Assembly (NCBI GenBank): GCA_016186395.1 | Contig: JACPLU010000001.1 | Coordinates: 5,036-69,035 of the forward strand | DNA: 64,000 nt | Direction of reading: 5' to 3' | Origin: Parcubacteria group bacterium | Lineage (GTDB): Bacteria > Patescibacteriota > Minisyncoccia > 2-02-FULL-40-12 | Shown: positions 1,256 through 50,662 of the stretch, one piece after another | Layout: the number at the start of each line of letters is the position of its first letter | How positions within the stretch are numbered: the first letter of the stretch is position 1 | Made by a program: the position numbers and the translations under genes | The notes under the pieces: generated by a model | What the model was told of the DNA's origin: nothing | What the model saw: the letters and a program-made list of their open reading frames with translations, nothing else | The model's database searches: none

Positions 1256-1522
1256 TTGGTTCAAGTTTACCGAAAACCAAGAGAAACAATCCCAAGCCTA
1301 ATCAGGCGTTTTAGTCGTGCAGTTCAAACAAGTGGTGTTTTAGATCAGGCCAAGGCTAAAAGATCTAGTCGTCGTAAGCCGTCAGAAAGAGTTATCAAGC
1401 AAAGAGCGATTATGGCTTTTCATTTAAGAAAACTTAGAATACATCTTGAAAAGGTGGGTCAATATAGTGAAGAAAAATTTGAGATTGAAAAAAAGAAGTT
1501 GAAACAAAAACTCGGACTCTAA
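1256..1522 (+). CDS. rpsU: 30S ribosomal protein bS21
   Basis: LIRRFSRAVQTSGVL...RRKPSERVIKQRA matches the S21 pattern (ALRRFKR..EK.G.L....R.YEKP...RK). Basic protein of 88 aa; TTG start, so the exact start is uncertain. Confidence 0.7.
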   Translation: MVQVYRKPRETIPSLIRRFSRAVQTSGVLDQAKAKRSSRRKPSERVIKQRAIMAFHLRKLRIHLEKVGQYSEEKFEIEKKKLKQKLGL

Positions 1523-1542
1523 AGTGTAAATTTCAACTCTTA

Positions 1543-1666
1543 GAAAAATTATATCCTTTCAGCACGCAAATTTTCTCCAGCGGGAAATTTGCTAAGTGCA
1601 GCATTAGATTTTGTTCTTTCTAGAACAAACCAAGCAATCTAATGCCGCAATTACTTCAAGGATATA
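1543..1666 (+). other. Candidate structured RNA or complex attenuator: three nested hairpins closed by a 15-bp helix
   Basis: gaaaaattatatcctt (1543-1558) pairs with aaggatataatttttc (1651-1666). Internal hairpins are gcaaattt-N11-aaatttgc, gcattagatt...aatctaatgc and ttgttct-ttc-tagaacaa. Confidence 0.4.
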
Positions 1667-1682
1667 ATTTTTCTCCCCCATC

Positions 1683-2180
1683 TTGTTAAAAGAAAGAATT
1701 AAAAATGATGTGGTTCAGGCACTAAAGATGCATGACGAAAAAGGGCGGTTAGTTTTAGGTTCTTTGCTTGCCGTTATTCAAAATAAAGAGATAGAGAAAA
1801 GGAGTTTTGCCGTAAAGAAAAATCTTTTTAGTTCCCAAGAAGAGTTAGTAAAGGCGTCGGAGCTTTCTGACGATGACGTTATTCAAGTTATTCAATCTGA
1901 AGTTAAAAAACGGAAAGAAGCAGTTGAACTTTTTAGAAAAGGTAACAGAGATGAACTGGCTCAAAAAGAAGAAGATGAAATCATAATTTTATCTGGATAT
2001 TTGCCGGAACAACTAAACGAGGAAGAGTTGAAAGAAATAGTTAGAAATACGATTAATGAATTGGGTGCGAAGGATGTTAAAGAAATGGGTAGAGTAATAA
2101 ATACTGTTATGCAAAAAGTTAAAGGCAGGGCTGACGGTTCTATGGTTAGTAGGTTGGCTAAAGATTTATTGGTTTCATGA
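1683..2180 (+). CDS. GatB/YqeY-domain protein
   Basis: The C-terminal region (LPEQLNEEELKEIVRNTINELGAKDVKEMGRVINTVMQKVKGRADGSMVSRLAKDLL) is typical of the YqeY/GatB C-terminal domain. Confidence 0.8.
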   Translation: MLKERIKNDVVQALKMHDEKGRLVLGSLLAVIQNKEIEKRSFAVKKNLFSSQEELVKASELSDDDVIQVIQSEVKKRKEAVELFRKGNRDELAQKEEDEIIILSGYLPEQLNEEELKEIVRNTINELGAKDVKEMGRVINTVMQKVKGRADGSMVSRLAKDLLVS

Positions 2181-2665
2181 AGTCAAATTTTACTTTCAAT
2201 AATTTCACGAAAATTCGGTCCTTGAAAAAGGGCTTTTTTAATAAAGTGATAAGCAAGGTTTTAGAAGAACTTAAATTAGGAAGAGAAAATTTGGCTTTTA
2301 GTTTAAGTATTGTTGATTCAAAAAGAATGAAGGAACTCAACAGAAATTATAGAGGAAAAAACAAAACCACGGATGTGCTTTCGTTTTCTTATGTTAAGGA
2401 CGGAAAACTTTCTAATGCAGAATTGTTACGTTTTATCAAAAAAGAAAAAATTGTGGAACTCGGGGATATTTTTATTGATCCGTCGGTAGCAAAGAAACAA
2501 GCCCAGCAAGTTAAAAATGACGGCCATTCTTTAGAGTATGAATTTGCAATGTTAACAACTCATGGGCTCTTACATTTACTTGGTTATGATCACGAACGTT
2601 CTAAGAAGGACGAAAAGAGGGTGTATGATCTCCAAGCTAAAATTTTAAAGGGTTTGCACTTATAA
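2177..2665 (+). CDS. ybeY: rRNA maturation endoribonuclease YbeY
   Basis: HGLLHLLGYDHE zinc-binding motif (H..H..GYDH). Overlaps the upstream gene by 4 bp. Confidence 0.85.
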   Translation: MKSNFTFNNFTKIRSLKKGFFNKVISKVLEELKLGRENLAFSLSIVDSKRMKELNRNYRGKNKTTDVLSFSYVKDGKLSNAELLRFIKKEKIVELGDIFIDPSVAKKQAQQVKNDGHSLEYEFAMLTTHGLLHLLGYDHERSKKDEKRVYDLQAKILKGLHL

Positions 2666-4214: not shown

Positions 4215-5348
4215 GTGCCTCAATTAAAACCTCCTTTTGAAACCTTTGCCCGTATAAAAGTAATTGGTGCCGGTGGTTCCGGAAGTAACGCTATTCAGCG
4301 GATGATAGCTGAAAAAATTCATGGCGTAGAATTAATTGCTGTAAATACTGATGCCCAAGATCTTCATAAGTCCGGGGCACCCACTAAGATTCATATAGGC
4401 AAAAATTTAACCAGAGGTCTTGGAGCTGGTATGAACCCAGAAATTGGACGACAAGCTGCTGAAGAGACTCGTGACGAACTTCACGAAGTTATTAAGGGTG
4501 CTGATATGGTGTTCATAACTTGTGGACTCGGGGGCGGTACTGGAACTGGTGCGGCACCGATAATTGCCGAAGTAGCAAAAGATGCCGGGGCCTTAACCGT
4601 TGCTATTGTTACCAGGCCGTTTAGTTTTGAAGGAGCTCAAAGAGGGAAAATAGCTGAAACTGGGTGGAACCAGTTAAGAGAAAAAGTAGATGCTCTTATT
4701 ACAATTCCAAACGATAGACTTTTATCAATTATAGAAAGAAAAACTCCTTTGCTTGAAGCCTTTAGAATAGTTGATGAAGTTTTGCGTCAGGGGGTTCAGG
4801 GAATATCAGATCTTATTACTACTCCGGGGATAGTTAATGTTGATTTTGCAGACGTTAAGGCAATCATGGCAAACTCTGGTTCAGCTTTAATGGGTATTGG
4901 AAGGGCAACGGGTGAAGATCGTGCTATTGAAGCTGCTAAAGCAGCAATAAATTCTCCGCTTTTAGAAATTTCAATTGATGGTGCGCGTGGAGTGCTATTT
5001 AATGTTGCTGGCGGTTCAGACCTATCTATGGCTGAAATTAACGATGCCGCTAAAGTAATAACAGAATCAATAGATACAGACGCTAAAGTTATTTTTGGTG
5101 CCACTCAAGACGATGGTTTAAAAAAAGGAGAGATTAAGATTACAGTTATAGCAACTGGTTTTGGAAATGGAGGAGTTAAACCAAGGGGTGCTACAAGTTT
5201 TGGATTATTTGAGCAGGAAAATACCAAAACCTCCTTGACACCTTCTCTAAGTAATTCTCAAAATTCTAAAAAAGTAATCGATGATCTAAATTCAGATGAA
5301 GAAGAGTATGATGTTCCGGCGTTTATTCGCCAAAAAATGAAAAAATAG
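4215..5348 (+). CDS. ftsZ: Cell division GTPase FtsZ
   Basis: Tubulin signature [19 protein letters not shown], and the full FtsZ architecture. Confidence 0.95.
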
Positions 5349-5410
5349 TTGAAATTTGTGGATAATTACAAAAAAATGCCCAAGTGGCGTTTTTTTGTTG
5401 GTTTCTGGGT

Positions 5411-5449
5411 TTGGTGAATAATACTATTTCTCTTTCTTCGTCCCCCCCC
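5411..5449. mobile_element. Partial copy (left end only) of the MITE-like element, followed by a C9 homopolymer
   Basis: tttggtgaataatactatttctctttcttcg matches the left arm of the 14994 and 30098 elements, then ccccccccc. Confidence 0.55.
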
Positions 5450-5684
5450 CACCTAACTTTTGTGGAAACTTGATTAGTTTAACTACATAATTGTCTTAAT
5501 TAATATTTAGTAATTCTGTCTATTAAAATAAAAGTTAGGTGGGGGTTGACTTCTTATTCGGAGGGTTTAAAATAAGAATTAAAGTGACTCTTAGAATCTT
5601 AAATATTTATAAAAGTTAGAATTAGTTTTTGGCGCCTTCACGGCGCCGACACTGTTTTAACAAAAGAATTAATTTTTCTCAAAT

Positions 5685-8497
5685 ATGACAAATCAATTTG
5701 TTTTTCCTCAAATTTCGACAGACAATGATAAAGAAAAGTTGGTAACCAGTTCTAAGCAAGGAAACGGAAAGTCTTATGGTTTAAACTGGCCCAGGTTTTT
5801 TGGCGAAGGTGATCCCTATGACTTTATTCAATGGGAAAGAAGGACAGCAAAAATAACCAAATCTGATGGCAGTATAGTTTTTGAGCAGAAAGATATTGAG
5901 GCACCCTCTTTTTGGTCTCAAACGGCTACAGATATTGTTGCCTCAAAATATTTCAGGGGGAAGATTAACAGTCCGGAAAGAGAAACAAGTGTTAGGCAGA
6001 TGATTGATCGAGTTAGTATTACGATAGCTAATTGGGGAAAAGCCGAAGGAAGGTTTATAAGTGATCAGGATTACGAAAACTTTTTACAAGATTTGAAATT
6101 TTTGCTGATAAATCAATACGCGTCTTTTAACAGTCCTGTTTGGTTTAATGTGGGTGTTTATGAACGTCCTCAATGTTCAGCTTGTTTTATCTTATCTGTA
6201 AAAGACGATATGCAATCCATCATGGATTGGGTTCAGGATGAAGGCTGGATATTTAAGAACGGTTCTGGTTCTGGAGTCAATCTTTCTTCTTTGCGCTCTT
6301 CCAAAGAGCCTTTATCCAAAGGTGGTCATTCTTCTGGTCCAGTCTCTTTCATGAAGGCTGCTGACGGCATGGCTAACTCGATTCGTTCCGGTGGAACAAC
6401 TCGACGCGCTGCCAAAATGGTAATTCTAAATGCAGATCACCCCGATATCAAAGATTTTATTTATTCTAAAAAAATAATTGAGGACATGACTAAAGCTTTG
6501 GCTCGAGAAGGCTTTAAAGATTCAATTACCGCAGATCTTTTTGACCCTTATACTCTTTTGCCGTATCAAAATGCTAATAATTCTGTTCGGGTGACAAATG
6601 AGTTTATGCATGCAGTAAAAGAAAATCGGGATTGGAATTTAAAAGCTGTTACTTCGGGAGATGTGATTGAGAGGATGCCAGCGAAAGATATACTTAGATG
6701 GTGTGCAGAGGCCGCTTGGCACTCTGCCGATCCAGGAATGCAATATGACACGGTTATAAACGATTGGCATACGTGTCCCAATAGTGGAAGGATTAGCGCC
6801 TCAAATCCATGCTCTGAATACATGCATCTTGATAACAGCGCCTGTAACCTTGCCTCACTGAACCTTTTAAAGTTTTTGCGTGAAGATGGAACTTTTGACG
6901 TCAATACTTTTAAAAATGCCGTTGGAACAATTATTCTTGCTCAAGATATTTTAGTTGATAATTCATCTTATCCAACTGAAAAAATAACCGAGAACGCTAA
7001 GAACTATCGTGAGTTAGGACTGGGTTATGCAAATCTTGGAGCTTTACTTATGACATTGGGACTTCCATATGATTCTGATCAAGGTAGGGCGTTGGCTGGT
7101 AGCATCACATCTTTAATGTGTGGGGAGGCTTATAGGATGTCGGCTATTATGGCGTCAAAATCTGGCCCCTTTGGTGGTTATATGAAAAATGAAGGACCAA
7201 TGTTGCGTGTTATAGAGAAGCATCAAAAAGCAGCCGATAATTTGGTTGAAAATATTAGATCAGATGGTCTAATTAATGAAGAAGACCTAATTTCTAACAG
7301 TCAATCTGTTTGGTATGAAGCGTTGGAATTGGGTAAACAGTACGGATACCGCAATTCTCAAGTTACAGTGCTTGCTCCTACGGGTACGATTTCGTTTATG
7401 ATGGATTGTAAAACAACAGGAATTGAACCGGATCTTGCTTTGGTAAGTTATAAAAAACTGGTTGGCGGAGGAACAATAAAATTAGTAAATAACCAAGTGC
7501 CGTCAGCTTTAAGGCGGCTTGGTTATTCTGAAGAACAGGTAAAATTATTTCGGATCATCTCATAGAAAAGGATACCATAGAGGGAGCTCCCGGACTTAAA
7601 GGGGAAGATTTGGCAGTTTTTGATTGTTCATTTAAACCACAAAATGGTAAAAGAACAATCAATTATATGGGACATCTTAAAATGATGGCGGTTGCTCAGC
7701 CATTTATATCCGGGGCTATTTCTAAAACTGTTAATCTTCCAAGCGAGGCAACTGTAGAGGATATAGAGCAGGCATTTATTGATTCTTGGGAGTTGGGTCT
7801 TAAAGCAGTCGCTTTTTATAGAGATGGTTCAAAAACCATACAGCCGTTAAGTACGTCAAAAGAAGATAAATTAGTTGAGCACATTAACGGATATACGCGT
7901 ATAAAACTGCCAGATGAACGGCCTTCTATAACCCATAAATTTACAATTGGTGGTTATGAGGGCTACATAACAACAGGTCTTTATCCGGGTACTCAAAAGC
8001 CCGGGGAGACTTTTCTAGTTGCTGCGAAAGAAGGCAGTACCGTATCGGGGTTATTAGATACAATTGCAACTTTAATTTCTATGTGTTTACAGTCCGGAAT
8101 TCCACTTAAGACCTTGGTCAAAAAGTTTAAGGATTTGCGTTTTGAACCAGCTGGTTATACAAACAACCCGGAAGTTCCTTTGGCAAAATCAATTGTTGAC
8201 TATGTATTTCGATATCTGGGTACAAAGTTTTTAACTCCAGAAGATAAGGAAGAAGTCTTTGGACCGCCTCATGATTTTAACGCTTCTGAAAAGGATATGA
8301 GTGCGATTACTACGCTGGCCTCCATAAATAATGTTCAAGTTTCCTCGGATCCGCTTCTTTGGAATCCACCGCCTAGACTCGGCGAGGCTGGCAACGAAGC
8401 GAGTGCTCCTGTTTGTAACTGCGGTGCTTTAATGTTTAGAGCCGGTTCTTGTTATACTTGTCCTAACTGTTTTTCTACTACTGGGGTTTGCAATTAA
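5685..8497 (+). CDS. nrdJ: Class II (adenosylcobalamin-dependent) ribonucleotide reductase NrdJ, interrupted by a -1 frameshift near 7541-7546
   Basis: ORF 5685-7565 and ORF 7610-8497 both carry RNR motifs (NPCSEYMHLDNSACNLASLNL; VFDCSFK...AVAQPFISGAISKTVN; C-terminal CxxC...CxxC). Reading from 7541 in the second frame gives the continuous KIISDHLIEKDTIEGAPGLKGEDLAVFDCSF. Confidence 0.8.
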
Positions 8498-8869: not shown

Positions 8870-10450
8870 GTGGTCAAAATTTACTATCCCCAGTTAATGA
8901 AATACGACTTGAGTTGGAAGCGTTACTTGGTTATAGTTTTACATATGATTTTAAGTCGCTCAAAGATTTTTTTAATTTGTCTTTTGGCATTTATTTTTGG
9001 GGTGGGATTGGGCTCATTTGTAAATGTAGCTGAAAAAGCAGCTCTTATAATCTTTTTAGTTTTAGGAATTCTGTTTTTGGGCGTCGGCTTGGTAGATAAA
9101 AGCAAAAGTTTATGGATTTTTTTGTTGGTTATAGTTTTTGCAGGTATTGTTAGATTTAACATAGAAAAAACAAATAGAGCGCAGTTTGATGGATTTATAG
9201 GTGTAAACTTTGCCGTTACAGTCAGAGGCTACATAAATGATCAGCCGCAGATTTTTGAAGATAAGCAACGTTTCATTTTTAAAGCAGAACAGATTATTGC
9301 CAATGATTTAGTAGTCAGTGTTGCAGACAATATTTTAATAACTTCAGATTTGTATCCCAAATATAATTTTGGAGATATTTTGGAGATAGAAGGAGAATTT
9401 CAAAAGCCAACTAGTTTTGATGACTTTGATTATGCCGCTTATTTGGCGAAAGACGATATCTATGTTTTGTCGTACTACCCCAAAATTAAAAAAATCTGTG
9501 AGGACAAACCAAATTGTTTAACACACTCATTTGCAACTACCTTGAAAAATGATTTTTTCAGAATTGTTTTTAACTGGAAACAAAAATTTGAAAATTCATT
9601 AAATTATTCTGTTAATGAACCCAATGCTTCGTTCTTAAATGGTGTGATTTTAGGATCTCGTTCAAATATCCCAATAGATTTGAAGGAGGACTTTAAAAAG
9701 ACCGGCACAAGTCATATCTTTGCTATTTCCGGATGGAATATTACCATTATCGGACAGATTATAGGTGGTTTCTTTTTATTATTTTTTAGAAGGCCAGTGG
9801 CTTTTTGGTTTACCGTCGGAGTAATTGCAACTTTTGTTTTATTAACCGGTGCTTCTGCATCTGTTGTAAGGGCGGCTGTTATGGGAGTTTTAGTTCTTTT
9901 GGCATACAAAGAAGGTAGATTTTACAATGCTACTAATGCAGTTGTTTTTGCAGGGGCGTTAATGATTTTAGTTAATCCTAAAATTTTGCGTTTTGACGTT
10001 GGATTTCAGCTTTCTTTTCTTGCGACACTTGGGCTCTTATACATTGGTCCGGTTATAGAAAGATTTTTTAAGCGATTGCCGAGCCTTTTTAAATTTAAAG
10101 AAAATTTAATTGCAACCTTATCAGCTACGGTTGCAATTTTACCGCTTGCAATTTTTTATTTTCGTCAGTTTTCAATAGTTTCTGTTCCAACCAATATTTT
10201 AGTTTTGCCAGCTATTCCTTGGGCAATGCTTTTTGGGTTTCTTTCAGGAATTCTGGGTTTATTATTTAATCCTTTGGGTCAGGCAGTCGGATGGACTGCT
10301 TGGCTATTCTCTTTTTACGCGCTGGGCATTATAAAGTTATTTGCTAAATTATCTTTTGCGGTGTTTGAAGTTCGCTGGCACTGGGTTGTAGTCTTTGTTT
10401 ACTACGTTATTTTGTCATTTGTTTTAAGAAGAAATTTTAAACAAATTTAA
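8870..10450 (+). CDS. comEC: ComEC/Rec2 DNA-uptake channel protein (N-terminal DUF4131 plus competence domain); the metallo-beta-lactamase domain is a separate downstream ORF
   Basis: Polytopic membrane protein. The N-terminal domain motif DFDYAAYLAKDDIYVLSYY and the many TM segments are typical of the ComEC core. Confidence 0.75.
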   Translation: MVKIYYPQLMKYDLSWKRYLVIVLHMILSRSKIFLICLLAFIFGVGLGSFVNVAEKAALIIFLVLGILFLGVGLVDKSKSLWIFLLVIVFAGIVRFNIEKTNRAQFDGFIGVNFAVTVRGYINDQPQIFEDKQRFIFKAEQIIANDLVVSVADNILITSDLYPKYNFGDILEIEGEFQKPTSFDDFDYAAYLAKDDIYVLSYYPKIKKICEDKPNCLTHSFATTLKNDFFRIVFNWKQKFENSLNYSVNEPNASFLNGVILGSRSNIPIDLKEDFKKTGTSHIFAISGWNITIIGQIIGGFFLLFFRRPVAFWFTVGVIATFVLLTGASASVVRAAVMGVLVLLAYKEGRFYNATNAVVFAGALMILVNPKILRFDVGFQLSFLATLGLLYIGPVIERFFKRLPSLFKFKENLIATLSATVAILPLAIFYFRQFSIVSVPTNILVLPAIPWAMLFGFLSGILGLLFNPLGQAVGWTAWLFSFYALGIIKLFAKLSFAVFEVRWHWVVVFVYYVILSFVLRRNFKQI

Positions 10451-12660: not shown

Positions 12661-12720
12661 TTCCTCACCTGTTTTTAGAGAACTAATTTATTGAGGTCAG
12701 TTTAGCCCAAGTATTTTAAA

Positions 12721-12760
12721 AGTCAAACCCCATTCTTGAGTTCAAGAATGGGGTTTGACT
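12721..12760 (-). terminator. 18-bp perfect inverted repeat; terminator of the minus-strand tRNA unit
   Basis: gtcaaaccccattcttga-gt-tcaagaatggggtttgac. Confidence 0.5.
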
Positions 12761-12769
12761 TTTCTTGAT

Positions 12770-14953: not shown

Positions 14954-14993
14954 AATTTTTCGCCTTTCTCAATAAAATATAAAATTGAAAGAA

Positions 14994-15198
14994 CTTGATA
15001 AATAATACTCTTTCTCTTTCTTCGCAAACCCCAGCGTGGTTTGCTCAGGGGTTGAGCTCTTTGCTCTTATCCAACTCTTTCTTTTGAAAGAGCTGGGTAA
15101 ACCATGCCCGTCCCGATTTCTGCTCCGCAGAATCGAGGATCCTCGATAGCATCGGGACTACGGGCTCAAAACCCGTTCAAGAGTATTATTCACCAAGT
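14994..15198. mobile_element. MITE-like element, copy 1 (about 205 bp; 19-bp TIR CTTGGTGAATAATACTCTT; palindromic core AATCGAGGATCCTCGATT; central hairpin cassette variant 1)
   Basis: Left end cttgataaataatactctt and right end aagagtattattcaccaag are inverted. Both arms are nearly identical to the inverted arms of the 30098-30317 copy. It is inserted between rpsG and fusA. Confidence 0.8.
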
Positions 15199-15266
15199 TC
15201 AATTGAAAAGGTAAATATTAAAATGACAAATAAATTTTAAATTTTGCATTGTCATTCTGAATTTTT

Positions 15267-30100: not shown

Positions 30101-30317
30101 AAGTGGGCTTGGTGAATAATACTCTTGAACGGGTTTTGAGCCCGTAGTCCCGATGCTATCGAGGATCCTCGATTCTGCGGAGCAGAAATCGGGACGGGCA
30201 TGGTTTTCTCTGTCTGGATTTACAGTCCAGATAGAGAAAGAGCGAAGGGCTCAACCCCTGAGCAAACCACGCTGGGGTTTGCGAAGAAAGAGAAAGAGTA
30301 TTATTCACCAAGCTCAC
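30098..30317. mobile_element. MITE-like element, copy 2 (inverted relative to copy 1; central cassette variant 2), inserted between rplO and secY
   Basis: cttggtgaataatactctt...aagagtattattcaccaag. The arms are the reverse complement of copy 1's arms. The central 45 bp differ and form an 11-bp hairpin (ctctatctgga/tccagacagag). Confidence 0.85.
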
Positions 30318-34060: not shown

Positions 34061-35051
34061 AGCTTTCTTGCTTAGTGAATTTAGACAAGATTTAGTTTCC
34101 GGTGAATGGGTTTTAATTTCAACCGGCCGTACTCATACCGTAAAAAAGTTTGAGGATTCTTATCAATCAAAAGATGAGTGTCCTTTTGAGGACTGGAATA
34201 TATTAAAACAAGATCTTGTAACTATTATTCCAGGTGAAATTAATTGGCGAGTGGCAGTTATAAAAAATAAATATCCTGCGGTGATGCCGGGTGAGAATGT
34301 TCCGGAAGAAAAAATCGGCCCGTTTAATATTAAAAAAGCCGTAGGAGAACACGAGGTCATCGTTTTTAGAGACCACGATATTAGATTTTACGACTTTAAT
34401 TTGGATCAGATAGCAGAGGCTATTAATATATACAAACAGCGTTATGCCGCGTTGGCTCAAAAGGATTCAAAAAAGTATATCATGATTTTTCATAATCATG
34501 GTCGTGAGGCCGGAGCCAGTATTTATCATCCCCATTCTCAAATTATTACTACTCCCATACTTCCACCCGATGTGGCCCATAGTATAAACGGTTCTTTTCA
34601 ATACTATAAAAAACACGGAAAAAGGGTATATGATGTATTATTGGATTGGGAGTTAAAAGAGAAAAAAAGAATTATTTACGAAAATGACCATTTTGTTGTT
34701 TTTTGTCCTTTTATTTCAAAGTATCCTTATGAAATAAGGGTTTTTTCAAAAGAAAGTCATGCCCATTTTGATAAGATGCCAGATGAATTAAATCAACCTT
34801 TGGCGGATGCCTTGAAATTTGCCATAGATAAACTAGGGGCAGTTTTAAATAAGCCGCCATTTAATTTTTTTATTCACACCGCACCATTGGAAAGTGAGTT
34901 TAATGATTTAATGCATGAATATTATCAATGGCATTTTGAGATAATTCCTCATATGAAAATAGATGCAGGATTTGAAATAGGTACGGGTATAGAAGTAAAT
35001 ATTATTGATCCGGATGAAGCGGCAGAAAAACTTAGAAACGTAAGACTTTAA
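34041..35051 (+). CDS. galT: Galactose-1-phosphate uridylyltransferase-like (HIT superfamily). The start is uncertain: TTG at 34041 or 34068
   Basis: SGEWVLIS, FHNHGREAGASIYHPHSQI (HxHxQ active site). Confidence 0.8.
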   Translation: MTLVFRSAFLLSEFRQDLVSGEWVLISTGRTHTVKKFEDSYQSKDECPFEDWNILKQDLVTIIPGEINWRVAVIKNKYPAVMPGENVPEEKIGPFNIKKAVGEHEVIVFRDHDIRFYDFNLDQIAEAINIYKQRYAALAQKDSKKYIMIFHNHGREAGASIYHPHSQIITTPILPPDVAHSINGSFQYYKKHGKRVYDVLLDWELKEKKRIIYENDHFVVFCPFISKYPYEIRVFSKESHAHFDKMPDELNQPLADALKFAIDKLGAVLNKPPFNFFIHTAPLESEFNDLMHEYYQWHFEIIPHMKIDAGFEIGTGIEVNIIDPDEAAEKLRNVRL

Positions 35052-35059
35052 TTTATAAA

Positions 35060-35117
35060 CTTGGCGAATAATACTCTTTCTCTTTCTTCGCAAAACCTGT
35101 TCAAGAGTATTATTCCG
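35060..35117. mobile_element. Deletion-derivative (mini) copy of the MITE, with both termini fused
   Basis: cttggcgaataatactctttctctttcttcgcaaaacc joined to tgttcaagagtattattcc. Confidence 0.7.
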
Positions 35118-35131
35118 CCATGCTTTAATTT

Positions 35132-35752
35132 ATGATTGGCCTTATTTCTTTAGTCAGTAGTTTTGCCCTTGGTTTTATTGAAAAAACCGGATATACCGGT
35201 GTTTTTGTCTTGTCATTGCTAGAAAGTGCCGCTATACCGGTCCCGTCAGAAATAGTAGTTCCGTTTTCCGGGTTTTTAGTTTCGCTGGGTAGATTTAATT
35301 TTTGGGTAATTGTAATTTTAACAAGCCTAGCTAATCTGTCCGGTTCAATAATTCTATTTTTTATAGGGAAAAGCGGTGGTCGGTGGATTTTAGAACATTA
35401 TGGTAAGTATATTTTTGTGCATCGTGACGATCTTGAGAAAAGCGATAAATGGTTTAAAAAGTATGGGTCAAAAGCAGTATTTTTTGGAAGGTTGTTGCCG
35501 GTAGTTAGAACTTTTATATCTTTGCCAGCTGGAATAGCAGAAATGAATTTTTATAAATTCAGTCTTTTTACCTTTTTAGGTGCCTTGCCTTGGAATTTTG
35601 TTTTAGCCTTGATAGGATTAAAAGCAGGAGAAAACTGGAATATCTTACATGAGTATTTTAGAAAATTAGATATTTTTATTTTATTAACCATTTTGGGTTT
35701 GATAGTTTTTTATTTATTTAAACATTTAAAAAAACAAAAAAGATATGTCTAA
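35132..35752 (+). CDS. DedA family membrane protein
   Basis: DedA signature region VFFGRLLPVVRTFISLPAGIAEMNFYKF and the TM topology. Confidence 0.8.
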   Translation: MIGLISLVSSFALGFIEKTGYTGVFVLSLLESAAIPVPSEIVVPFSGFLVSLGRFNFWVIVILTSLANLSGSIILFFIGKSGGRWILEHYGKYIFVHRDDLEKSDKWFKKYGSKAVFFGRLLPVVRTFISLPAGIAEMNFYKFSLFTFLGALPWNFVLALIGLKAGENWNILHEYFRKLDIFILLTILGLIVFYLFKHLKKQKRYV

Positions 35753-50340: not shown

Positions 50341-50460
50341 AATTATATCTAGATTTGCCGATGTAGTCCCGATTTTGCTCTGCAAAATCGAGGATCCTCG
50401 ATGGCAAAGCCGTCGGGACTCAACGGCAGAGTCCCGACTTTGTCGAGGATCCTCGATTAT
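50341..50460. repeat. Nested palindromic element related to the MITE core (two copies of TCGAGGATCCTCGA with GTCCCGA/TCGGGAC-type arms), immediately upstream of tRNA-Thr
   Basis: gattttgc-tct-gcaaaatc, atcgaggatcctcgat, gtcgggact-N9-agtcccgac, tcgaggatcctcga. Confidence 0.65.
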
Positions 50461-50474
50461 TAGCAGAACTTAGA

Positions 50475-50546
50475 GCCGGCATAGCTCAGTGGTAGAGCAA
50501 CTGTTTTGTAAACAGTAGGTCGTCAGTTCAAATCTGACTGCCGGCT
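50475..50546 (+). tRNA. tRNA-Thr (anticodon UGU)
   Basis: Acceptor GCCGGCA/TGCCGGC, D-arm GCTC-AGTGGTA-GAGC, anticodon stem ACTGT/ACAGT with loop TTTGTAA, T-arm GTCAG-TTCAAAT-CTGAC. Confidence 0.85.
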
Positions 50547-50662
50547 CTAAGTTCTGGATAATCGGGGCAACGCTTTTGTAAAGCGAAGGTTCCGAGTTCA
50601 AGTCTCAGGGTCGGCTCTAACGGGATAAATAGGTTATGGGTTCAAATTCCTCTGTCGGCTTG
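50547..50662 (+). pseudogene. Two tandem degenerate tRNA-Thr-derived remnants (one near full length with intact anticodon loop and T-arm but an unpaired acceptor; one 3'-half only)
   Basis: ...ACGCTTTTGTAAAGCG...CCGAGTTCAAGTCTCAGGGTCGGCTCT, then ...ATGGGTTCAAATTCCTCTGTCGGCTTG. Both end in the (T/G)CGGCT(C/T)T acceptor-like tail of the intact gene. Confidence 0.55.

Follow-up and report, generated by a model that had tools for sequence, protein, structure and literature searches.

The spacer between rpsU and yqeY of this Parcubacteria group bacterium contains a 133-nt element that is one of 12 distinct related copies, recovered at nine intergenic sites by covariance models (CMs) and one motif scan, which share a three-way junction architecture, covarying helices and a set of conserved unpaired bases, and which match no catalogued RNA family. 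We see about an even chance that the element is a copy of a new dispersed structured repeat family of Parcubacteria/Patescibacteria, comparable to MITE, ERIC and Correia repeats, each ~130-nt copy of which, when single-stranded, would form a three-way junction under a closing helix of 15–20 bp. The initial annotation, made from the window alone (the whole 64-kb stretch of DNA analysed here, in whose numbering positions are given unless a locus is named), had implied an RNA specific to this locus; this does not hold, since the copies lie at nine intergenic sites beside unrelated genes, two of them antisense, and the spacer lacks the element in close relatives.

The limits of the element are 1542-1674. 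An earlier placement at 1543-1666 (124 nt) had its start nearly right but its end wrong, so that the 3′ arm lost its final 8 nt. The 15-16-bp closing helix reported with that placement is present, its quoted arms lying at 1543-1558 (gaaaaattatatcctt) and 1658-1673 (aaggatataatttttc), and one further pair, formed by adding a nucleotide at the outer end of each arm, brings the helix (P1) to a perfect 17-bp inverted repeat. The three internal helices described then are likewise real, but they do not form separate hairpins: they are arranged as the two arms of a three-way junction closed by P1, one a simple hairpin (P2) and the other a two-tier arm (P3; Table 1). Eight of the 11 P2 pairs are perfect. 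In P3, the outer tier is a 10-bp helix (1601-1610 / 1636-1645) and the inner tier a 7-bp hairpin (1611-1617 / 1622-1628, loop 1618-1621), and the two are split by a 7-nt internal loop on the 3′ side (ACCAAGC, 1629-1635) that is conserved in the family. Each of the three junction strands can pair with the others in three registers that exclude one another and that all show some covariation, such that J3/1 partly pairs with either J1/2 or J2/3 in the alternative registers. Nesting this regular had been judged unlikely to arise by chance, and the folding energy bears the judgement out: the minimum free energy (MFE) of 1523-1690 is -49.4 kcal/mol, compared with -22.9 +/- 3.3 kcal/mol in 200 dinucleotide shuffles, none of which was as good (z = -8.0). 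The minus strand of the element folds comparably (z = -6.4), as expected of near-perfect inverted repeats.

Table 1. Parts of the rpsU-yqeY copy, its flanking genes, and the sites of the family's copies. Positions are those of the window; the sites of copies (last eight lines) are given by locus, with orientation relative to the flanking genes, and their flanking contexts were checked with Pfam.
Feature	Position or locus	Strand or orientation	Remarks
P1 5′ arm AGAAAAATTATATCCTT	1542-1558	+	inverted repeat with 1658-1674; paired in the MFE and centroid structures
J1/2 junction strand UCAGCAC	1559-1565	+	from CM alignments A8/A9; the CAC preceding P2 is near-invariant across copies, its CACGY portion being demanded by the metagenome scan pattern
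P2 hairpin	1566-1592	+	11 pairs (1566-1576 / 1582-1592), two of them U·G; loop CCAGC (1577-1581)
J2/3 junction strand UAAGUGCA	1593-1600	+	family consensus CUAAGWG
P3 arm	1601-1645	+	outer helix, inner hairpin and 3′ internal loop
J3/1 junction strand CGCAAUUACUUC	1646-1657	+	family consensus ..AUUR.. (A9); outside the scan pattern
P1 3′ arm AAGGATATAATTTTTCT	1658-1674	+	contains TATAAT (1663-1668); ends 8 nt 5′ of the yqeY start codon
rpsU, 88-aa ribosomal protein S21-like ORF	1256-1522	+	Pfam S21 E = 3.3e-4, under the gathering score; stop codon 19 nt before P1
yqeY (GatB/YqeY domain)	1683-2180	+	TTG start; homologues cover 99% of 165 aa
ybeY	2177-2665	+	overlaps the end of yqeY
Copy in rpsU-yqeY spacer	window, L001	sense	
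Copy in yqeY-ybeY spacer / 3′ of yqeY	L001, L082	sense	
Copies in rpsJ-rplC and rplC-rplD spacers	L088	sense	two almost identical copies
Copy 3′ of clpB	L091		decayed version in L089/L096
Copy in gatA-clpB spacer	L096	antisense	
Copy after rnj, before trpS	L098	sense	
Copy 3′ of unnamed 88-aa ORF	L093	sense	
Copy in rplW-rplB spacer	L099	antisense	

The location between rpsU and the GatB/YqeY gene is as first described. Pfam assignments run HIT, S21 (weak), YqeY, YbeY, FtsA and FtsZ on the plus strand, all genes near the element are on this strand, and the rpsU-yqeY synteny is common to many Patescibacteria. The YqeY product has an identical counterpart in a 'Parcubacteria group bacterium' MAG (host MAG protein MBI2626627.1, locus tag HYW77). 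The deposited YqeY protein (150 aa) begins at an internal ATG, whereas the TTG at 1683 gives 165 aa; judged from the homologues, the deposited annotation is probably too short and would lengthen the apparent spacer by 45 nt. Neither a terminator nor a promoter was predicted in the rpsU-yqeY spacer (1523-1682). The TATAAT within the 3′ arm of P1 is 14 nt 5′ of the yqeY TTG, and an element-free relative (L104) has TGTGATATAAT in the same place (6728-6737 of that locus, 12 nt before the yqeY ATG); the 3′ arm may correspond to the promoter region native to yqeY, of which the 5′ arm would be an inverted copy. Just upstream of P1 a TTCAAC is retained (1532-1537) that matches the L001 copy in its outer 5′ arm and whose pairing partner is missing. 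Elsewhere in this string of genes, TTTAGAC occurs four times in tandem directly before the rpsU start codon (1224-1251), and similar short motifs (gtttcatgttt) are repeated in the spacers at ~780-830 and 2680-2700.

The closest relative (L001; S21 93% and YqeY 68% identical) carries the same architecture in the same spacer with different helix sequences. Nucleotide identity between the two is 88% in rpsU, 67% in yqeY and 57% in the element, in which all helices remain intact. When these two orthologues are aligned by sequence only (A3), the helices fall out of register and RNAalifold recovers little; therefore a CM was built from the single window sequence and then iterated. The CM from the window copy alone identified three more copies, at L001 532-666, at L001 1202-1329 between yqeY and ybeY, and at L082 605-710 just 3′ of yqeY (S21 cluster members L084-L087 are identical to L001 and add no information). 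A motif derived from the first four copies (CACGY..TYRCTAAGWGY..RRWCCAWGSAA) was used to scan JGI metagenomes and retrieved 11 loci with GC contents of 0.52-0.57, each of which scores 69-82 bits by CM; the L3 protein of one of these hosts is nearest to those of Candidatus Sungbacteria and other Patescibacteria. Further CM searching added an antisense copy (L099 7053-7187, 83 bits) and a divergent copy downstream of clpB (L089/L096, 32 bits), in which the core has decayed and P1 is intact. The GC content of the copies ranges from 29% to 57%. The two copies of L088 lie within 1.1 kb and are nearly identical, a sequence similarity that suggests recent duplication, and the two of L001 lie within 1.9 kb. 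No similarity is seen among the 3′ flanks of the copies, which therefore are not parts of a larger common unit.

Compensatory change, proposed with the initial annotation as a check on the fold, is abundant. In an alignment of 10 sequences, 36 of the 42 pairs are changed on both sides, and standard pairing is found in 93% of cells, compared with 41-52% when the partners are slid by 1-3 columns; none of 500 shuffles reaches the observed values. The pair counts come from alignments that had been fitted to the structure of the model, and alignments of 4 and 11 sequences give similar covariation. By helix, 16/17 pairs of P1 and 9/11 pairs of P2 are altered on both sides across the family, as are 8-9 of the 10 pairs of the P3 outer helix, which is 97% paired. 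Covariation extends into the junction, where column 59 in J2/3 co-varies with column 114 in J3/1 (UA in five sequences, AU in four, GC in one) and columns 21-61 hold GC four times, AU three times and GU three times. Within the helix cells, 368 of 423 are Watson-Crick; G·U occurs 13 times (6 without the loop-closing pair) and A·C about 10-11 times, a comparison that shows no bias when used as a test for the transcribed strand. There is thus no G·U excess and no sign that selection has acted on one transcribed strand, and the stem pattern would fit palindromes kept perfect at the DNA level.

Conservation of sequence is found outside the helices. The P1 sequence differs between lineages and the unpaired core bases are conserved, the fixed junction and loop bases being CACG, CUAAG, ACCAWGCAA, AUUR and CCWGC (~25 bases kept). 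CTAAG in J2/3 is invariant in alignment A9. This conservation is partly circular, in that the 11 JGI copies were selected for CACGY, TYRCTAAGWGY and RRWCCAWGSAA. Positions that are conserved though unselected are the CCWGC loop of P2 (present in 9/11 copies and not demanded by the scan pattern), AUUR in J3/1, the invariant UU/AA pairs at the inner end of P3a, and C24-G58. The conserved bases are asymmetric and unpaired, and they are retained in copies of 29% to 57% GC despite the turnover of the stems.

The element family was previously uncatalogued and is held by no RNA catalogue. The initial annotation had found by eye no likeness to tRNA, tmRNA, SRP RNA or RNase P RNA, and none of 4227 Rfam families matched, 6S RNA and the known self-cleaving ribozymes included. 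Searching the whole window against Rfam 15 at gathering thresholds returned only an RNase P RNA and four tRNAs, all outside the element; a permissive scan of 1400-1800 (E <= 10) gave chance-level matches only, and five further loci with copies gave no relevant match at E <= 1 and no ribozyme. ARAGORN predicted no tRNA or tmRNA in the element. The family DNA motif was absent from IMG/VR, two copies compared by BLAST with plasmid and phage collections had no match, a protein scan of JGI metagenomes guided by S21 found nothing, and the literature searched on structured RNAs and repeats of Patescibacteria/Parcubacteria yielded no description of the element. Several local resemblances noticed by eye were rejected. 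Loop B of the hairpin ribozyme (AUUAC/CAC) and the hammerhead ribozyme misfit in strand order or partner strand, and their Rfam models are silent; the same misfit, together with the lack of an Rfam match, applies to the 11-nt tetraloop receptor (CCUAAG), the K-turn (UAA bulge), 5S rRNA (a three-way junction with CCAUGC) and the SRP Alu loop (CCAGC). In a supposed mimic of the tRNA acceptor (hairpin plus ACCA), the A is paired in several copies and a T-arm is absent.

All 12 copies are intergenic, seven of the nine sites being in sense orientation and two antisense, and the neighbouring genes encode products as different as S21/YqeY/YbeY, L3/L4, L23/L2, ClpB, GatA, RNase J/TrpS and an unnamed ORF. 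Presence at a given site is variable. Two relatives that share the HIT-rpsU-yqeY synteny (L083 and L104) have spacers of 14 and 63 nt and lack the element, and in many relatives the rpsU-yqeY gap is 0-2 nt. The yqeY-ybeY junction of the window is without the copy that L001 has there. Likewise, the rpsJ-rplC spacer of L099 is without the L088 copy, the remainder of the spacer being 83% identical; the element-adjacent part does not align, and this comparison accordingly leaves the exact empty site undefined. No copy was found in L100 or L101, nor did a CM search of the yqeY surroundings in 80 other Patescibacteria species (~400 kb) return one; in the window, one copy is all that a search with filters off returns. 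Target-site duplications are not visible at the window, L001 and L099 copies, and no conserved terminal repeat sequence is evident among the AT-rich copies. The GC-rich copies have a nearly constant CTCG...CCTCG at both ends, which may belong to the element itself. Genes for transposases, HUH proteins or integrases were not seen in the loci examined.

Other palindromic elements were encountered in the same genomes. A second, unrelated family of ~215-nt nested hairpins occupies ribosomal-protein operon spacers of the window at 14991-15200, 30103-30317 and 35049-35132, with terminal inverted repeats of 22-24 bp (..GAATAATACTCTT / AAGAGTATTATTC..); its first two copies are opposite to each other in orientation (fold z of -11.7 and -9.6), the third is internally deleted, and the family looks like a classical MITE. 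After ftsZ (5446-5545), a 16-bp perfect inverted repeat (CCCCCACCTAACTTTT / AAAAGTTAGGTGGGGG) encloses ~68 nt. Elements with nearly the same termini (CCCCCACCTAAAATCC) occur in the Sungbacteria-like relative L100 (650-981), and a Logan assembly of the same genome as the window departs from it exactly at ~5451, which suggests that this element is an assembly-breaking repeat. A tRNA (50475-50546, CCA not encoded) is set in a perfect 18-bp leader-trailer helix (50464-50556) that extends its acceptor stem, and just upstream (50386-50458) is a hairpin with a 16-bp stem and a AUCGAGGAUCCUCGAU module common to the 215-nt family. The rpsU-yqeY spacers of three further loci (L072, L062 and L012) contain unrelated nested hairpins, and that of L010 contains a 430-nt insert (2078-2510) in which an IVS-like long helix (GTAGAAAGTGGAGGGTGGAGAGT...) surrounds an ORF whose product resembles, by eye, the four-helix-bundle '23S rRNA intervening sequence' protein family. 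In the S10/spc operon of L100 (3281-9437) nearly every spacer has palindromic inserts of 85-330 nt from several families, among them two near-identical 200-nt copies (5266-5485 and 9225-9437). Upstream of rplC, L088 (173-283) and L099 (5011-5134) share an 83% identical segment with a terminator-like end (GGCGCCGGG.AAGGCGTTTTTT), which may be an operon leader or attenuator common to Sungbacteria-like genomes.

Copies of the rpsU-yqeY element family come and go at orthologous spacers, stand in either orientation, occur as near-identical pairs and decay, from which we infer that spread or duplication of the family takes place at the level of DNA, in the manner of MITE-, ERIC-, BOX- or Correia-type repeats. 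The traits of a MITE are partly present, namely inverted repeats together with insertion polymorphism at orthologous sites and both orientations, and so are those of ERIC/bcr1-type repeats: a strictly intergenic location, co-directional gene strings and a fold kept by compensatory substitutions. The same genomes contain other nested palindromic spacer families in both orientations, at least two of them in the window, and colonisation of operon spacers by structured palindromes seems to be general in these genomes.

Among described repeats, ERIC/IRU of Enterobacteria and bcr1 of the Bacillus cereus group are transcribed intergenic repeats with a conserved RNA fold. They resemble the present family as ~120-160-nt intergenic imperfect palindromes of variable presence, usually within transcription units and with compensatory stems; they differ from it in that there is no sequence similarity and in the three-way junction, conserved unpaired core, lineage-variable closing helix and CPR host found here. 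Correia/NEMIS elements of Neisseria and BOX/RUP of pneumococci are likewise short, dispersed and present in both orientations, a likeness that would extend to co-transcription. However, the terminal repeats of Correia elements are conserved and their target duplication is TA, whereas here the arms vary and a duplication is not evident. REP/BIME sequences are also extragenic palindromes that follow stop codons inside operons. REPs are ~35-nt single hairpins with a conserved GTAG head, are linked to RAYT genes and can stabilise upstream mRNA; the present element, in contrast, is 133 nt long and branched and has no GTAG head, and no RAYT gene was seen. A different set of parallels is offered by tRNA 'punctuation', organelle t-elements, rRNA/tRNA leader-trailer stems and rRNA intervening sequences, in all of which an inter-cistron module is set in a long helix and may be excised endonucleolytically. 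The element is, however, not tRNA-like by ARAGORN and Rfam and is outside rRNA genes, and its excision is a prediction.

The window copy lies inside a co-directional gene string with no predicted terminator or promoter between rpsU and yqeY, and for this reason the rpsU-yqeY-ybeY message most likely includes it. In such a message the element would fold on itself into a closed and very stable domain. The long P1 duplex would then be a plausible site for RNase III or other processing, by analogy with Correia elements, in which the long terminal inverted repeats form an RNA duplex that RNase III cleaves. By blocking 3′-exonucleases, the element could uncouple rpsU from yqeY-ybeY and stabilise the rpsU portion. 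Its 3′ arm covers positions -25 to -9 relative to the yqeY start and may thereby mask the start and damp initiation of yqeY.

The placement of the conserved bases stands against a mobile repeat, in that a variable P1 around a conserved unpaired core is the reverse of the usual transposase-recognised MITE and is typical of functional RNA. The recovery of one copy in the 64-kb window and of none around yqeY in the 80 species searched, and the lack of an evident target-site duplication or a nearby transposase, also stand against mobility. The main alternative, which we hold possible but do not favour, is a new class of functional small RNA, acting as a self-cleaving, protein-binding or 'punctuation' processing-site element in polycistronic messages, in which the junction and loops would be the active or binding site, P1 the excision stem, and the copies paralogues scattered like tRNA genes. 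Its junction and loop bases are fixed across the full GC range, including at positions that were not selected, with the stems compensating; the G·U pairs of columns 21-61 can form solely on the plus strand; orientation is sense at 7/9 sites; the exclusive pairings of the junction strands are switch-like; and the window's tRNA within its leader-trailer helix makes long closing helices a habit of the genome. Against this, the element is patchy, missing at the same site in close relatives and from the loci of 80 species, two copies are antisense to the surrounding operon, one has a decayed core with an intact P1, the helices show no overall G·U excess, and no known ribozyme or RNA family is matched. 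A more specific form of this proposal, a Patescibacteria-specific RNA class in which a core of ~25 fixed bases is excised via the closing helix and works as a self-cleaving or processing module, or with a protein partner, possibly as a switch, we regard as rather doubtful. The absence of wobble bias in the Watson-Crick stems would agree with a site used as single-stranded DNA, that is, a folded target of an HUH-type transposase or recombinase, or a replication or priming signal, with the unpaired bases read by the enzyme. Dispersal, polymorphism and both orientations suit such a site, as does an asymmetric conserved core that could be recognised on one strand; but no HUH, transposase or integrase gene was seen in the examined loci and phage, plasmid and viral collections hold no match. 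Known single-stranded DNA sites (REP, IS200/IS605 ends, attC) are moreover single hairpins rather than 130-nt three-way junctions, and we consider this reading improbable.

Two readings are tied to the rpsU-yqeY locus. That the element is a terminator or attenuator of rpsU, in which P1 is a hairpin with a large pre-folded 'loop' and yqeY is driven by the TATAAT of the 3′ arm, draws on the similarity of the P1 arms (AGAAAAA... / ...UUUUUCU) to the A-tract/U-tract bidirectional terminators of the window (for example 12718-12763) and on the position of TATAAT 14 nt before yqeY, matched by TGTGATATAAT in L104. The prediction scan of 1523-1682 is nevertheless empty, the stem adjacent to the U-run is AT-rich, and a conserved junction core would be unneeded. 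In GC-rich members P1 is not followed by a U-tract, and several of them are found within operons, flanked by ribosomal protein genes, so that termination is not a property of the family, and the reading is very improbable. A gene-specific cis-regulator (an S21 feedback site, a YqeY-binding leader or a riboswitch for yqeY-ybeY) was suggested by the first four copies, which all flank yqeY, and by the end of the 3′ arm 8 nt before the yqeY start. This association is an ascertainment effect, the first loci having been fetched via yqeY and rpsU; the copies from the motif scan and CM searches lie beside L3/L4, ClpB, GatA, RNase J/TrpS and L23/L2, and relatives with identical synteny are without the element. 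Dispersal and absence together rule out a regulator specific to yqeY or S21, and we give a gene-specific role next to no credence.

Given the tiny genomes of Patescibacteria (CPR) and the very short spacers in them, a 130-nt element within essential operons (rpsU-yqeY-ybeY, S10) is unexpected. What defines the family is now a covariance model ready for use, together with strong covariation and a core that is sharply conserved. Should the family be no more than a mobile palindrome, as we prefer to read it, CPR operon spacers would be colonised by structured repeats, with at least two other families in the present case; repeats of this kind break assemblies and may affect how mRNA is processed. 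If the core is functional, the family would be a new RNA class in a lineage for which, to our knowledge, almost no non-coding RNAs have been described.
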